NCBI RefSeq assembly: GCF_964228395.1
Contig: NZ_CAXQZX010000129.1
Location: 21,466 to 85,465 of the forward strand
From: Limnobacter sp.
GTDB taxonomy: Bacteria; Pseudomonadota; Gammaproteobacteria; Burkholderiales; Burkholderiaceae_B
Direction: 5' to 3'
Length of the DNA stretch: 64,000 nt
Position numbers and translations under genes: made by a program. This document shows positions 15,087 through 39,413 of this stretch, piece by piece (the stretch's first letter is position 1; each line of letters starts with the position of its first letter). Under the pieces are notes generated by a model. It saw nothing but the letters and a program-made list of their open reading frames with translations, searched no databases and had not been told where the DNA came from.

Positions 15087-15115
15087 TTGGTGCCATAGAC
15101 CCATAAATCGGTTCC
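15087..15115 (-). promoter_or_regulatory. Near-consensus hrp box (GGAACC-N16-GCACCAA) facing the GNAT gene
   Basis: The minus-strand reading is GGAACC gatttatgggtctatg GCACCAA. It has one mismatch to CCACNNA and ends 28 nt upstream of the ATG at 15059. Confidence 0.35.
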
Positions 15116-15149
15116 ATTCCAGCATTGGTAGGTGGTCAAGCTTATAGAG

Positions 15150-15177
15150 GGAACCTCGCCGAAAAGACCGCCACTTA
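15150..15177 (+). promoter_or_regulatory. Perfect hrp box (HrpL-type ECF sigma promoter) upstream of sctV
   Basis: The sequence is GGAACC tcgccgaaaagaccg CCACTTA, which equals GGAACC-N15-CCACNNA. It ends 35 nt upstream of the sctV start. Confidence 0.7.
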
Positions 15178-15211
15178 ACTACATCAGGAATTTTTTGGAC
15201 CAGGCCTAATC

Positions 15212-17326
15212 GTGATCGCTGCACTGAATCGCTTTGCCCGCTTGGCTTCAGCTCGATCTGAAGTGGTTGGTGCTTCTTTGATCGTCTTGATGATCGTCAT
15301 GATGGTGGTTCCAATCAGTCCATCTGTGCTCGATGTGCTTCTTGCACTAAACATTTCAGTGGCCATTTTGCTGGTGATCAGCGCTGTGCTCATCGAAAGC
15401 CCTTTGGCTTTCTCATCCTTCCCAGCGATTCTTCTGATGACCACGTTGTTTCGGCTATCGCTCACCATTTCGACCACCCGTCAAATCTTGCTTGAAGCAG
15501 ACGCGGGTCAGATCGTTCAAACTTTTGGCGAGTTTGTGGTGGGCGGCAACGTGGCTGTCGGGCTCATTATTTTCATCATTATTTCTGTCGTCAACTTCCT
15601 CGTGATCACCAAGGGCTCCGAGCGAGTGGCCGAGGTGGCAGCTCGCTTCTCTCTGGATGGGATGCCCGGCAAACAAATGTCCATTGATGGAGACCTAAGA
15701 GCTGGCTTAATTACCCAAACTCAGGCCAAAGCCAAGCGCGCAGCGCTTGAAAAAGAATCCCAATTGTTCGGCGCGATGGATGGCGCAATCAAGTTCGTAA
15801 AAAACGACGCAATTGCCGGTTTAATTATTACTGTCGTTAATTTGCTTGGTGGTTTGGCTGTAGGCATGTTGCAACTGGGTATGGATTTCTCAACCGCGGG
15901 CAACACCTTTGTGATCTTGTCTGTTGGCGATGGCCTGGTGGGCATTATTCCCTCGCTCATGATCTCGATTGCAGCAGGCCTGATCGTAACCCGCGTGACC
16001 AAAGGCGAGGCGGATGGGTCCAGCACCGCTTCAGACATGATTCTGGACCTGACCCGAAACACCAACGCCCTTCAAATCAGCGGCATCGTGTGCTTTGCAT
16101 TTGCATTTGTACCAGGCATGCCCTCGATAGTTTTTTTGTGCACGTCGGCTGGTTTTATTGCAGCTTGGCATTTGGGCACCCGCCTAAAAACTGATCTGGA
16201 TGAAAGTAAGCCCGCTGATACCTCAGAGCAGGTGCTAGAGCAAAAAAGCAAAACAAAGCTAGAAGACGTGCTGCAAACCAAAACCTTCAACGCACTCGAG
16301 GTTCGTTTGCCACATGGCGCCGAACCCACTTTAACAAATTTGGTACAAAACATCTGCAGATTGGCACGCAACCGACAGGTCGAGCATTTGGGCATACTGC
16401 TTCCCTTGTTCGAATTCACCTCGCATTCAGAACCCGATATTGAATTCTTTGTGTACGGGGTGCCGTGTTTAACCATCAAGATCTCTGACAAGCGAATGGC
16501 CCTGCGATCTCCAAAAGAAAAAGTTGATGCGGTAGATGGCTTGAATTACACCATCGAAAAAGATCCAATCTCAGGCAAGTTCAACATGCTCTGCGATCCC
16601 GTTCAGAAGCCCTTGCTTGAGGCAAACGGAATCGAGTTTGTCAGTTATGAAAACCGACTGGTCTCACAAGTCGAAGCCCTCTTGGTCAAGCGAATAGACC
16701 AGTTGTTTACACTCAATGAATATCAGGCGCACATCACTGGGCTAGGTGAGCAATACGCCGAGCAACTCAAAGAACTCGAGCGTGTTTTGCCGAGCACCAA
16801 AGTCGTGGATATTTTGCAGCGTCTGCTCAACGAGTCTGTGTCGATCAAGAACATGCGTTCGGTACTCAACAGCCTCATCGACTGGGGCCAACGTGAGCGC
16901 GACACAGCCGTGATTGGCGAACAGGTGCGTCGGGTTCTTAACGAACAAATATGTCATCAGTACGCACGCCAGCGCAAGTTGCACTTGTTCATGCTCGACA
17001 CAGAGTTCGAGCAACTCATTCGTGAGGCAACGCGAAGCAACAGCCAGGCCATCTACCTCGATATCGACTCAACATCCTTGAATTACATGGTTGATGCTGT
17101 TGAAGAGCAGATTGGCATGCACACCCTGGGCGAATTCATGCCGGGCATTGTTTGTTCAATGGACTGTCGTCTGTTGTTCAGGCAAATCATTCAGGATCAG
17201 CTTTTTGGCGTACCAGTGCTTTCGCATCAAGAACTCTCAAAACAAGTGGAAATTCAGGTCATGGGCAGCATCTATGTTGAAGAGCCCAGCGATGAAGAGC
17301 AAGAACAAACCGGGGCGAAATCATGA
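15212..17326 (+). CDS. sctV: T3SS export gate major subunit SctV (HrcV/InvA/YscV, FHIPEP family)
   Basis: The 704 aa ORF contains FHIPEP signatures: FPAILLMTTLFRLSLTISTTRQIL, ITKGSERVAEVAARFSLDGMPGKQMSIDGDLRAG and GAMDGAIKFVKNDAIAG. It has a GTG start. Confidence 0.97.
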   Translation: MIAALNRFARLASARSEVVGASLIVLMIVMMVVPISPSVLDVLLALNISVAILLVISAVLIESPLAFSSFPAILLMTTLFRLSLTISTTRQILLEADAGQIVQTFGEFVVGGNVAVGLIIFIIISVVNFLVITKGSERVAEVAARFSLDGMPGKQMSIDGDLRAGLITQTQAKAKRAALEKESQLFGAMDGAIKFVKNDAIAGLIITVVNLLGGLAVGMLQLGMDFSTAGNTFVILSVGDGLVGIIPSLMISIAAGLIVTRVTKGEADGSSTASDMILDLTRNTNALQISGIVCFAFAFVPGMPSIVFLCTSAGFIAAWHLGTRLKTDLDESKPADTSEQVLEQKSKTKLEDVLQTKTFNALEVRLPHGAEPTLTNLVQNICRLARNRQVEHLGILLPLFEFTSHSEPDIEFFVYGVPCLTIKISDKRMALRSPKEKVDAVDGLNYTIEKDPISGKFNMLCDPVQKPLLEANGIEFVSYENRLVSQVEALLVKRIDQLFTLNEYQAHITGLGEQYAEQLKELERVLPSTKVVDILQRLLNESVSIKNMRSVLNSLIDWGQRERDTAVIGEQVRRVLNEQICHQYARQRKLHLFMLDTEFEQLIREATRSNSQAIYLDIDSTSLNYMVDAVEEQIGMHTLGEFMPGIVCSMDCRLLFRQIIQDQLFGVPVLSHQELSKQVEIQVMGSIYVEEPSDEEQEQTGAKS

Positions 17327-38256: not shown

Positions 38257-39264
38257 TCAGGCCTCGCTGACGTTAGGCAGATGAATGTCGTTTTGCCTCG
38301 CCCTAATCACCTTGACAGCCATATCGTGGGCGTTGCCTGCCGAGGGCGAGCGTTCGTTCAGCTTTGACACCATCTCTTCAAGGGGGGTACGGATTTGGCG
38401 TAAAAGGGCTGTTTCGATTTGGGAGGCCAGTTTCCGGTTGGATTCGTTGAGGCTGTTTTCCAAGGCCTGGGTAAGCCCTGTGATCTGTTGGGTCTGAATG
38501 GATTCCAGTTGCCGGACCACGGGAACCATGGCCTGTATTAGCTCGTCTTTCATCAGACGAGCTTGGTTGCTTGTGGTGGTGGAATGCTCCACCAGCGTGG
38601 CGAGATACTCTTCGCCAACAGCGCCCTCAAAAAGCCCGTTGAGGCAGTCAACCAAGTGATCCAGTGCGGTGATGCAGCGCCCATAGAGCATCTTTTCCCA
38701 GTGGGTAATCACCATGGCCGCTGTGATGGCCGCAGCAGAGGCGTAGAAAGCATCTCGCACGCCAGCGAGCAGCACAGAAATGCTTTTGCTAATTGTTTCC
38801 GTGTTGGTGGCATCAAAATTGGATAGGCCGAATAACAAACCCGCAAATGTGCCAATGATGCCTATGCCAGTGAGTATTCCTGGCAGGTGTTTAAAGTACT
38901 CGACACTCAGTTGGCGGTCGACCACGGACGAGACAGAGAAAAAATGTGACGCGGGTACTGTGATTCTGCATTTGGTTCGCTTGAGTTGACCCTGGACATA
39001 GCTGGTTTGAGTGTGGAGCGTTTTGGCAAACTCCCGCCAAAGGGGATCAAATGGGGAATCTTGAAACACCCTTGCGACGCCGCTTTTGCGCATGCTTTCA
39101 TCGCCGTCGCTCATCGAGCGTATTGTGGTTCCAATTTTTTCCAGGTTGCTACATAAACTTCGAGCGGGCACCACGTAGCGGGAGTAAAAAAAGTAGCAGG
39201 CGATCAACAAGATGATCGCAACCATGGTGGGCGGGATGAGCTGGAGAATACTGACTGCGGACAT
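38257..39264 (-). CDS. MotA/ExbB/TolQ-family proton-channel protein with a C-terminal coiled-coil tail
   Basis: It has TM1 (PPTMVAIILLIACYFFY) and a loop of about 100 aa. The family-typical TM pair follows (LPGILTGIGIIGTFAGLLFGL and LLAGVRDAFYASAAAITAAMVITHW), and then about 145 aa of helical tail. I prefer the ATG at 39264 (GGAG 9 nt upstream); the ORF-track start is 39300. Confidence 0.8.
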   Translation of the reverse strand: MSAVSILQLIPPTMVAIILLIACYFFYSRYVVPARSLCSNLEKIGTTIRSMSDGDESMRKSGVARVFQDSPFDPLWREFAKTLHTQTSYVQGQLKRTKCRITVPASHFFSVSSVVDRQLSVEYFKHLPGILTGIGIIGTFAGLLFGLSNFDATNTETISKSISVLLAGVRDAFYASAAAITAAMVITHWEKMLYGRCITALDHLVDCLNGLFEGAVGEEYLATLVEHSTTTSNQARLMKDELIQAMVPVVRQLESIQTQQITGLTQALENSLNESNRKLASQIETALLRQIRTPLEEMVSKLNERSPSAGNAHDMAVKVIRARQNDIHLPNVSEA

Positions 39265-39346
39265 GGCTGCAAGCTCCCTTTTTTGATTGTGTGAATGCAA
39301 TCGAGGTGCTTGCCCCGATGGAGAAAGGAAAATTCCCTACGGTCAC

Positions 39347-39374
39347 TTGGTGGCTTGCAGGATTGAATGGTTCC
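39347..39374 (-). promoter_or_regulatory. Perfect hrp box upstream of the motA-like gene and the minus T3SS operon
   Basis: The minus-strand reading is GGAACC attcaatcctgcaag CCACCAA, which equals GGAACC-N15-CCACNNA. It lies directly downstream of the terminator of the preceding gene. Confidence 0.7.
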
Positions 39375-39375
39375 A

Positions 39376-39413
39376 AAAGCAAAAAGGCACCCCGAAGGGT
39401 GCCTTTTTGCTTT
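39376..39413. terminator. Intrinsic (bidirectional-looking) terminator
   Basis: It is a perfect palindrome: AAAGCAAAAAGGCACCC cgaa GGGTGCCTTTTTGCTTT. The GC stem is flanked by A/T runs, and it lies 36 nt after the stop of the 39449..40909 gene. Confidence 0.75.

Follow-up and report, generated by a model that had tools for sequence, protein, structure and literature searches.

A Limnobacter injectisome cluster of a predicted Hrp1-sister lineage carries hrp-box-type motifs and an embedded, tail-less ZorA/ZorB-like gene pair

A T3SS (type III secretion system) was listed for Limnobacter sp. MED105 by Persson et al. 2009 (PMC2702493), and Abby et al. 2014 (Front Microbiol 5:505, PMC4224133) placed the Limnobacter T3SS 'outside the defined families, sister-group of Hrp1'. 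As far as the available portions of these two papers go, the systems are typed by core-gene phylogeny only, with no mention of promoters, of needle or translocon content, or of ZorAB/MotAB-like genes. Here, we analyze a 64-kb stretch of Limnobacter sp. DNA (from contig NZ_CAXQZX010000129.1; hereafter the window) in which two tightly packed, convergent gene blocks, spanning approximately 15.2–39.3 kb, form a complete injectisome cluster. One of the blocks begins with a pair of genes related to zorA and zorB of the Zorya anti-phage systems, and both blocks are preceded by motifs of the hrp-box type. An original prediction made from the letters of this DNA described the injectisome and was silent on the ZorAB-like pair and the hrp-box promoters.

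To our knowledge, Zorya motors have so far been known only as phage sensors with an indispensable long tail, and injectisomes, unlike flagella, are thought to be without stator units. Ion-driven, wall-anchored 5:2 pairs of the MotAB/ExbBD type do serve other secretion machines – SiiAB in the type I system of Salmonella pathogenicity island 4 (SPI-4) and GldLM/PorLM in type IX secretion – and these are precedents by kind of unit, not by sequence comparison. SiiA is cited in the Zorya literature, including Hu et al. 2024 (PMC11946911). In that study all Zorya subtypes have long ZorA tails, every truncation of the E. coli ZorA tail abolishes defence while leaving assembly of the 5:2 motor intact, and defence also depends on ZorC and ZorD, being lost on deletion of any E. 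coli Zorya gene. For the window, we consider it fairly probable overall that the cluster is an Hrp1-sister injectisome, driven from hrp boxes, with a co-opted ZorAB-type motor.

The plus-strand block (15212–23943) runs from sctV to sctU, and the minus-strand block (39264–24014) from zorA through the basal body and needle genes to the translocon and a last gene of 626 codons; the two meet at 23943/24014, in agreement with the two convergent, tightly coupled operons of the original prediction. That prediction took 15087–39413 as injectisome throughout, which holds up to 37469; the rightmost 1.8 kb (37469–39264) is the ZorB/ZorA-like pair. In what follows, related loci carry L numbers, of which L003 is Limnobacter sp. 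MED105, L017 the Pantoea stewartii plasmid Hrp1 reference and L025 a close, 87%-identical relative, whose gene calls were used to refine the gene starts of the minus-strand block.

The ZorB-like protein (37469–38254, minus strand, 261 residues) has a transmembrane (TM) helix with a conserved Asp and a peptidoglycan-binding OmpA-like domain. It matches the NCBIfam ZorB1 model over its full length with 307 bits, the PADLOC ZorB1 model with an E-value (E) of 2.8e-85, and E. coli ZorB (PDB 8QYD) with 244 bits. The ZorA-like protein (38257–39264, minus strand, 335 residues) is tail-less, consisting of the motor domain and a tail stub of about 120 residues where E. coli ZorA has about 500. It covers positions 19–314 of the 729 in the NCBIfam ZorA1 profile (PADLOC ZorA1, E 2e-84), and in a 174-bit match to 8QYD its residues 22–331 align with 19–328 of E. 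coli ZorA. An AlphaFold2 (AF2) model of the protein compares with 8qyy_A at a TM-score of 0.86 and a root-mean-square deviation of 3.5 Å, and past the motor domain a 71-residue helix is followed by a second, short one. An assignment of the pair as flagellar MotAB was rejected, the NCBIfam MotB models scoring 16–23 bits against 307 for ZorB1.

The likeness to type I Zorya (E. coli ZorABCD, PDB 8QYD; Hu et al. 2024, PMC11946911) extends to the full-length ZorB with its TM Asp and peptidoglycan-binding motif, to a ZorA motor domain that is 34–36% identical, and to the zorA-zorB order and its tight coupling. The pair differs in how long its ZorA tail is, in E89 – one of the two E. coli Ca2+-site glutamates – which is K or R in every T3SS-linked ZorA, and in its setting, which is a T3SS operon with a hrp-box promoter and not a defence island. 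No zorC or zorD follows zorAB in any of 12 loci; among the canonical ZorA relatives (at most 36% identity), both contexts inspected have ZorC (EH signature) and ZorD (SNF2) adjoining.

In the window the gene after zorB, 58 nucleotides downstream, is an SctI-like T3SS gene, and sctJ follows. The same arrangement, with zorAB directly upstream of the hrpB-like gene and sctJ, is found in L002–L011, L023 and L025, and in four of these (L006, L008, L011 and L023) zorAB stands between sctU and sctJ on one strand. The MED105 locus (SctC 61% identical) shares the window's gene order, chromosomal site and zorAB pair. The pair is kept at 39–87% identity in at least 11 related T3SS loci with all frames intact. 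The YADLMT and TDxDGSYLYNLxLSLxRSEW motifs of ZorB are conserved in 11 of 11 relatives, a KVIRARQ-like motif is conserved at the ZorA C-terminus, and the short ZorA proteins of the relatives are 322–358 residues long with a uniform tail stub of 120–141 residues. A search of 5.8 billion proteins returned a compact set of ZorA-like proteins of 330–345 residues, from 100% to 39% identity and all from Limnobacter where named; below 39% only longer or split canonical ZorA appeared. In a neighbor-joining tree of the motor domain, 73 short ZorA proteins (and one of 403 residues) fall into one clade, with weak basal support. At least 25 contigs are common to the match lists of SctV, SctC and short ZorA, as judged by equal size of the longest contig. 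Relative to the 87%-identical relative, non-synonymous divergence (dN) is 0.075 for zorA and 0.10 for zorB, compared with 0.06 for sctJ, 0.08 for sctC and 0.075 for the flanking acyl-CoA dehydrogenase gene, and the guanine-plus-cytosine content of zorAB, both overall (GC) and at third codon positions (GC3), matches that of the cluster and not of the flanks. A separate, 229-residue protein of Limnobacter litoralis (P0295) is a ZorA-like fragment with 56% identity over only 38% of the query, and may represent decay of the gene in a species that has possibly lost the system.

Exact matches to the Hrp1 hrp-box consensus, GGAACC-N15/16-CCACNNA, number two in the 64-kb window, where 0.13 would be expected, and none of 100 shuffles reached two. 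One copy (GGAACC-N15-CCACTTA; 15150–15177, plus strand) lies 34 nucleotides upstream of sctV. The other (GGAACC-N15-CCACCAA; 39347–39374, minus strand) lies 82 nucleotides upstream of zorA, directly following the terminator hairpin (approximately 39380–39408) of the preceding gene. The Pantoea Hrp1 locus, used as a positive control, has three exact boxes, just upstream of hrpA, hrpF and sctW/hrpJ. With a relaxed form of the box (GGAACy-N15-nnAC-yTA), variants are found upstream of sctV in L027, L023, L014 and L016; upstream of zorA there is a box in L002, L006, L011, L023 and L025, and a variant in L004, L007 and L009. Two further motifs lie within the minus-strand block. GGAACT-N15-TCAC, between zorB and the following 141-codon gene (37437–37464), is present in the window and L025, and GGAACC-N15-TCACTCA, inside a 178-codon gene ahead of sctI (31110–31137), is present at eight loci, including L004, L008, L009, L010, L011, L023 and L025. 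A loose match at 35233 inside sctL was discarded as a promoter, since it reads GGAACG and is not conserved. From their sequence and placement, the hrp boxes probably control the cluster, and as far as we can tell HrpL-type promoters of a Limnobacter T3SS are new to the record. Searches by tblastn with Pantoea HrpL, HrpS, HrpX, HrpY, HrpA, HrpF, HrpG, HrpT, HrpV, HrpJ, HrpO and HrpP against the window and the related loci gave no HrpL, and an HrpS-like gene only in L013. This gene (L013:18377–19216), near a zorAB-less member, encodes a sigma-54 enhancer-binding protein 45% identical to Pantoea HrpS and is the sole Hrp-type regulator homologue seen near these clusters.

The nearest relatives of SctV and SctC are proteins of Limnobacter, uncultured Burkholderiales and 'Gammaproteobacteria', from 90% down to approximately 40% identity, and the next after the Limnobacter-type SctV are HrcV proteins of the Hrp1 systems of Erwinia and Pantoea (about 40%). 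We compared the core proteins with one annotated locus each for Hrp1, Ysc, Hrp2, Rhc, Mxi-Spa and LEE, using neighbor-joining trees with the Mxi-Spa/Inv family as outgroup. Hrp1 is the closest classical family by BLASTP for SctV (38–41%), SctN (48–49%), SctR (44%), SctS (41%) and SctJ (42%). The identities to Hrp1 of 38% for SctV, 48% for SctN, 32% for SctU and 26% for SctC are no higher than those between Hrp1 and Ysc (42% for SctV and 49% for SctN), a between-family level. In the trees the core proteins are sister to the Hrp1 clade and nested inside neither Hrp1 nor Ysc, with bootstrap values of 69 for SctV, 100 for SctU, 100 for SctC, 89 for SctJ and 40 for SctN, and of 77 for a seven-protein concatenate (SctN, R, S, T, U, C and J); Ysc groups with Hrp2 and Rhc, not with the Limnobacter-type clade. 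As judged from these trees, the cluster forms a deep lineage of its own, a clade confined to Limnobacter with Hrp1 as its sister. The original prediction that it fits no single classical family is therefore borne out, although the novelty that this implied is not, the placement having been published by Abby et al. 2014 (PMC4224133). A 10.6-kb contig of Nostoc sp. CHAB 5844 (JAIVFW010000113.1; L016) also carries a Limnobacter-type T3SS; its SctV is nearly identical in the tree to a widespread Limnobacter sp. protein (P0070), and the contig is almost certainly a contaminant from a co-cultured Limnobacter.

The cluster resembles Hrp1 systems in its gene orders, V-D(HrpQ)-N-O-Q-R-S-T-U and hrpB-like-J-K-L, both recognized in the original prediction, and in its short HrpQ-type SctD and hrp boxes. 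It differs from them in several ways. Gene sctW follows sctC and is not upstream of sctV, there being no hrpJ before sctV; there is no hrpP between sctO and sctQ and no hrpF or hrpG before sctC; and hrpL, hrpS, hrpX and hrpY regulators are absent in and near the cluster, which, as predicted, has no regulator gene inside it. A needle-like 71-residue subunit and a YopB/SseC translocator take the place of the HrpA pilus and harpins, and the presence of two SctI-like paralogues and of the zorAB insertion sets the cluster further apart. With Inv/Mxi-Spa (SPI-1) systems the cluster shares the sctC-sctW adjacency (mxiD-mxiC) and a gatekeeper fold nearest MxiC and InvE, which agrees with the Inv-like adjacency noted earlier, but no classical family is further away in any of the core proteins compared. 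Its gene order also differs from the yscN-U, virB (yscA-L) and lcrGVH-yopBD organization of Ysc.

These observations would fit the following scheme. Three to four hrp-box promoters would drive separate units: sctV through sctU; zorA-zorB followed by the hrpB-like gene, sctJ, K, L, C and W; and, from the box inside the 178-codon gene, the translocon together with sctI and the needle gene. A ZorA-ZorB pair of type I Zorya may have entered one sub-lineage between sctU and the hrpB-like gene, losing ZorC, ZorD and approximately 380 residues of the ZorA tail, and would have stayed from then on at the head of the basal-body operon as its two leading genes. The zorAB-less locus L015 has a hrp-like box directly between sctU and the hrpB-like gene, which fits an insertion there in one sub-lineage. 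ZorAB could assemble as a 5:2 ion-driven, peptidoglycan-anchored inner-membrane unit beside the basal body, with the tail stub and the conserved C-terminal motif of ZorA contacting an injectisome component, and might serve assembly or wall anchoring, or link secretion to ion flow or to a deformation of the envelope, for instance upon contact with a target. Gene identities, synteny, promoter motifs, conservation and the structural match are observed here, and from these genomic data we infer co-transcription, complex formation and a functional link of ZorAB to secretion. In view of the requirements reported by Hu et al. 2024 (PMC11946911), the missing tail together with the missing ZorC and ZorD makes a working Zorya system unlikely, and the conservation of zorAB behind a T3SS-type promoter favors co-option. 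We put forward tentatively, as a possibility short of an even chance, that the tail-less ZorAB is a working part of the injectisome, exapted from anti-phage Zorya. A non-flagellar type III system would then have its first dedicated 'stator' of the 5:2, ion-driven and wall-anchored kind, one that couples the assembly, anchoring or activation of secretion to proton flow or envelope deformation. A literature search returned no paper linking ZorAB or a stator-type pair to an injectisome or to type III secretion, and as far as we can tell the embedded tail-less ZorAB is new to the record.

Several points weigh against this interpretation or its parts. An injectisome of this kind can do without the pair, since zorAB is missing from five more distant related T3SS loci (L012–L016); L015, one of the five, falls among zorAB carriers in the tree of concatenated proteins. 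A shared function is not proved by co-location and a common promoter motif, and dN/dS values are rough because synonymous divergence (dS) is saturated even against the closest relative. Searches by tblastn with Pantoea HrpL gave no HrpL-like sigma gene in the window or 16 related loci; the sigma factor would therefore have its gene outside these loci, and the promoters are assigned by motif. In the neighbor-joining trees each classical family is represented by a single reference, and the Limnobacter clade is monophyletic with modest support (46–56). Finally, the SctO, SctK, SctP, tip and minor translocator labels are positional and the needle label is weak.

The main rival to co-option by the injectisome is that zorAB forms a minimal module of its own, for anti-phage defence or abortive infection, whose location within or next to the T3SS genes is incidental and which acts, for example, by depolarizing the membrane on phage perturbation; it might even guard against phages exploiting the injectisome, and would have no role in secretion. 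The only detectable relatives of the pair are indeed Zorya ZorA and ZorB, its motor residues and peptidoglycan-binding motif are intact, and some related T3SS loci do without it. Defence genes, moreover, often travel with mobile or variable regions. A stand-alone defence module is nonetheless hard to reconcile with the lack of ZorC, ZorD or any other effector gene after zorAB in the 12 loci, when canonical relatives have ZorC and ZorD and when tail truncation or deletion of any Zorya gene kills defence in E. coli (Hu et al. 2024, PMC11946911). The position of the pair inside the cluster in the collinear loci, its T3SS-operon promoter motif and the 58 nucleotides to the next T3SS gene also speak for the injectisome, and we regard independent defence as unlikely.

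A second alternative concerns the cluster as a whole, namely that it is a recently inserted, mosaic pathogenicity island put together from Hrp1-, Ysc- and Inv/Spa-type modules; the original prediction described a mosaic island inserted between metH and an atu-like catabolic cluster. The composition noted there is real – GC is 0.505 in the cluster and 0.56 in the flanks, some five to six points apart, and GC3 is 0.44–0.65 and 0.62–0.71, respectively – and a Hrp1-like order is combined with a needle, a translocon and the sctC-sctW adjacency. SctU and SctC, 32% and 26% identical to Hrp1, also score marginally better by BLASTP against Ysc than against Hrp1. The trees of SctV, SctU, SctC, SctJ and the concatenate, however, agree on one position sister to Hrp1, with SctN agreeing weakly, and therefore point to a single history and not a mosaic. 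The peripheral genes are without detectable similarity to any classical family, so nothing shows import from one.

The synteny also argues against recent insertion. The left flank of the window is metH followed by a GNAT acetyltransferase gene, and the right flank a Gly-rich 486-codon gene followed by the atu-like cluster, in which domain scans identify AtuA, a carboxyltransferase, a biotin carboxylase and acyl-CoA dehydrogenases. This right flank (486-codon gene, acyl-CoA dehydrogenase and biotin carboxylase genes) is shared with MED105, L. olei, Limnobacter sp. 130 and two metagenome-assembled genomes. Gene metH is directly 5′ of sctV in a 3.28-Mb genome with an 88%-identical SctV, and also in a metagenomic relative with a ZorA identity as low as 40%. 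The second block, from zorA to the translocon, is inverted between subclades, being convergent with the first in the window, L003, L004, L007, L009 and L025 and collinear with sctV-U in L006, L008, L011 and L023, while the metH and acyl-CoA dehydrogenase flanks are unchanged across both orientations. Occupation of the same metH-adjacent site in deeply diverged relatives indicates an old resident in spite of the truly lower GC, and, consistent with the earlier reading on this point, no tRNA was found, and no integrase or transposase domain among the ORFs (open reading frames) scanned. The cluster is a long-standing resident of the metH site, and its recent assembly as a mosaic island is improbable.

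The weakest alternative, that zorAB is a functionless, decaying remnant of a Zorya system broken by rearrangement of the T3SS operon, could appeal to a ZorA of less than half canonical length and to the missing ZorC and ZorD, but can scarcely be entertained when no locus, across the range of 87% to 39% identity, has either frame broken, lengths are uniform, dN is as low as in SctJ and SctC, the catalytic and peptidoglycan-binding motifs are invariant and the promoter box is conserved.

The remaining genes substantiate the cluster as a real and complete injectisome, as originally predicted, with the core components SctV, D, N, Q, R, S, T, U, J, L and C recognized by Pfam or NCBIfam and joined by rod, gatekeeper and translocator; the secretin SctC, with SctJ, SctD, SctQ and SctL, marks it as an injectisome and not a flagellum. 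The plus-strand block opens with sctV, encoding the export gate (15212–17326; Pfam FHIPEP, E 4e-188), and sctD (17323–18267), whose short, HrpQ-like product of 314 residues matches Yop-YscD_cpl (E 2.5e-7), Y4YQ_C and TIGR02500 (E 1.2e-10) and has one TM segment at 119–158. The ATPase gene sctN (18264–19643; ATP-synt_ab and T3SS_ATPase_C) encodes a protein 49% identical to Pantoea HrcN. A gene in the sctO position (19633–20064) encodes a 143-residue coiled-coil protein without Pfam or NCBIfam match, whose best hhalign partner – the SctO reference set – has a probability of 9%. Its 3′ end overlaps the start of sctQ (20055–21158; FliMN_C, E 1.5e-11), leaving no sctP gene between them. The block continues with sctR (21162–21818; FliP), sctS (21825–22088; Bac_export_3), sctT (22085–22885; Bac_export_1) and sctU (22882–23943; Bac_export_2, E 8.7e-97). 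SctR, S, T, U and V and SctN all pass Pfam, with E from 8e-21 down to 4e-188.

On the minus strand, zorB is followed by a 141-codon gene (36985–37410) in the Hrp1 'hrpB' position, with the hrp-box-like motif described above ahead of it. Homologues of the unassigned genes were gathered from 15 related loci by iterated hidden Markov model (HMM) searches, and hhalign references were small alignments from the six classical loci. The 141-residue family aligns with the lineage's own sctI family at 93.7% probability and with reference SctI at 34%, so that the system has two SctI/HrpB-like proteins, one encoded before sctJ, which is the Hrp1 arrangement, and the other beside the needle gene, which is that of Ysc and Mxi-Spa. 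Both SctI-like profiles match one and the same 199-residue ORF in L013. Then come sctJ (36190–36978; YscJ_FliF, E 1.3e-26; TIGR02544, 203 bits, above the curated cut-off), a 252-codon gene in the sctK position (35435–36193), sctL (34774–35442; Pfam HrpE, E 1.1e-5; TIGR02499, E 1.1e-8) and sctC (32988–34790; Secretin and Secretin_N; TIGR02516, 346 bits, above the curated cut-off). The 252-residue family has no hhalign or PDB profile support for SctK; a faint YscK match (E 0.016) in one of 95 pooled family members presumably comes from it, and the label is credible only because all six reference families have SctK encoded between sctJ and sctL.

The 401-codon gene after sctC (31786–32991) has no sequence-level match by Pfam, NCBIfam, PDB profile search or hhalign. 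An AF2 model of its product from an alignment of 25 sequences (predicted local distance difference test, pLDDT, of 77) was used in Foldseek and retrieved MxiC 2vj4, MxiC 2vix and InvE 9y93 at probabilities of 1.00, 1.00 and 0.96, the next match being at 0.13. Going by this predicted fold, the protein is SctW, a gatekeeper of the single-polypeptide MxiC/InvE type. It is followed by a 123-codon gene (31410–31781), conserved in the family and without profile matches, and the 178-codon gene (30871–31407) that holds the internal hrp-box-like motif. The latter had been called sctP, and although sctP is indeed missing from its place before sctQ, the 178-residue protein shows no similarity to SctP or FliK in a pooled Pfam scan, by hhalign or in a PDB profile search. 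The inner rod gene sctI (30537–30878, 113 residues) matches T3SS_basalb_I (E 1.6e-4) and aligns with SctI references at 93% by hhalign. That Pfam family is also matched by 8 of the 95 pooled members, attributed to the sctI family; the pooled scan otherwise gave only HrpB2 and YscK, in one member each.

The gene after sctI (30310–30525) encodes a 71-residue, SctF-like needle-subunit candidate with a C-terminal motif, KDLTEPLKSIVNK, conserved across the family. Its best PDB profile match is PscF at E 0.63 and hhalign to SctF references reaches 49% (E 1.7e-4); its dN against L025 is 0.012. A small, needle-type subunit remains likely from these features, while the more specific YscF-like assignment made originally finds weak profile support. 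In L023 (19656–20412) the needle region is followed by a run of very small called genes (53, 55, 35, 35 and 35 residues), which could be a tandem short-peptide array or a gene-calling artefact. In the window four to five small or medium genes follow (27843–30299; 423, 201 and 85 residues, and a 49-residue or so ORF at 30150–30299), in the same series as in the L025 gene calls, as candidates for tip and chaperones. The 423-, 201- and 85-residue proteins have no Pfam or NCBIfam match, hhalign supports no tip or class II chaperone label, and a PDB profile search with the 423-residue family gave no meaningful match. The major translocator SctE (26827–27834), of the SseC/YopB/EspD family, matches Pfam SseC (E 1.4e-15), YopB (hhalign 94%) and EspD (92%) and has two TM segments (90–132 and 154–187). 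Its 303-residue partner in the minor-translocator position (25916–26827) has no family match, no TM segment at a Kyte-Doolittle value of at least 1.6, and hhalign probabilities of 2% to YopD and EspB. Of the translocator pair and tip originally described, the YopB/SseC-type two-TM protein is thus confirmed, whereas the one-TM partner and the coiled-coil tip are not.

Taken over the cluster, the Pfam and NCBIfam scan of every ORF gave no match for the 143-, 252-, 401-, 123-, 178-, 71-, 85-, 201-, 423-, 303- and 626-residue proteins, PDB profile searches with the 252-, 178- and 423-residue families gave no meaningful match, and hhalign against the six classical loci supported no SctK, SctP, SctW, tip, YopD/EspB or class II chaperone label. 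The full list of Sct parts read originally is accordingly upheld for V, D, N, Q, R, S, T, U, J, L, C and I by profile, for W by fold and for the major translocator, with a gene also present in the O position; O, K, P, the tip and the minor translocator are labels of position only.

The last gene of the minus-strand operon (24014–25894), encoding a 626-residue protein conserved in L003, L004, L005, L006, L009 and L025 and without family match in Pfam, NCBIfam and other profile scans, is a candidate secreted substrate. Between it and sctU, close relatives have an extra gene of 304–308 codons (L025:20764–21690; L027:18724–19638) of which there is no trace at the window junction 23943–24014, and the cargo where the operons converge appears to be variable. 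A second candidate lies outside the cluster. A 502-codon ORF (45707–47215, plus strand) inside the atu cluster, on the opposite strand, has a GC of 0.46 and a GC3 of 0.49, no Pfam match, a GGAACC-N16-GAACTTA box approximately 30 nucleotides upstream (45647–45675) and a DGNCMYSNL motif near the C-terminus of its product. The N-terminus, MPIQVNSSTAQSAGAEGASLF, presumably fits the export-signal rules for Hrp effectors, and the protein is a candidate secreted effector of this T3SS.

The genes bordering the cluster have peculiarities of their own. The 486-codon gene (39449–40909, minus strand) adjoins zorA in five relatives, has its own terminator just ahead of the zorA hrp box and has no hrp box upstream; its product is 17.7% Gly, with no Cys and with repeated GGSEGPTGTPLDAVLG units. 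This composition is harpin-like, and the N-terminus we take to resemble an adhesin-type 'retention' module. On the other side, the longest GNAT ORF between metH and sctV (14472–15224, minus strand) overlaps both neighbors and the sctV hrp box, so the true GNAT start must be internal. At this spot L027 has a 109-residue ORF without domain and L023 has nothing, and the likeness to a GNAT gene adjoining sctU in the Pantoea Hrp1 locus is probably coincidence.

The injectisome described here is a member of an already noticed, uncharacterized lineage, a well-delimited sister of Hrp1 with a needle and a pore-forming translocon, and it is the HrpL-type promoters and tail-less ZorAB that raise the locus above a plain additional T3SS member. 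The short needle-type subunit, MxiC/InvE-type gatekeeper and YopB/SseC-type pore former suggest a system built for a naked eukaryotic membrane, such as that of a protist or wall-less alga, and not for a plant cell wall, and an Hrp1 sister of this kind bears on the origin of plant-type systems from membrane-puncturing ones. If the proposed role is true, a conserved, co-regulated, tail-less ZorAB in an injectisome operon would show that motors of defence systems can find new use in other machines of the envelope. Should the link hold, cultured Limnobacter such as MED105 would provide a genetically tractable handle on proton-driven accessory units of injectisomes and on the sensing of contact or envelope strain.

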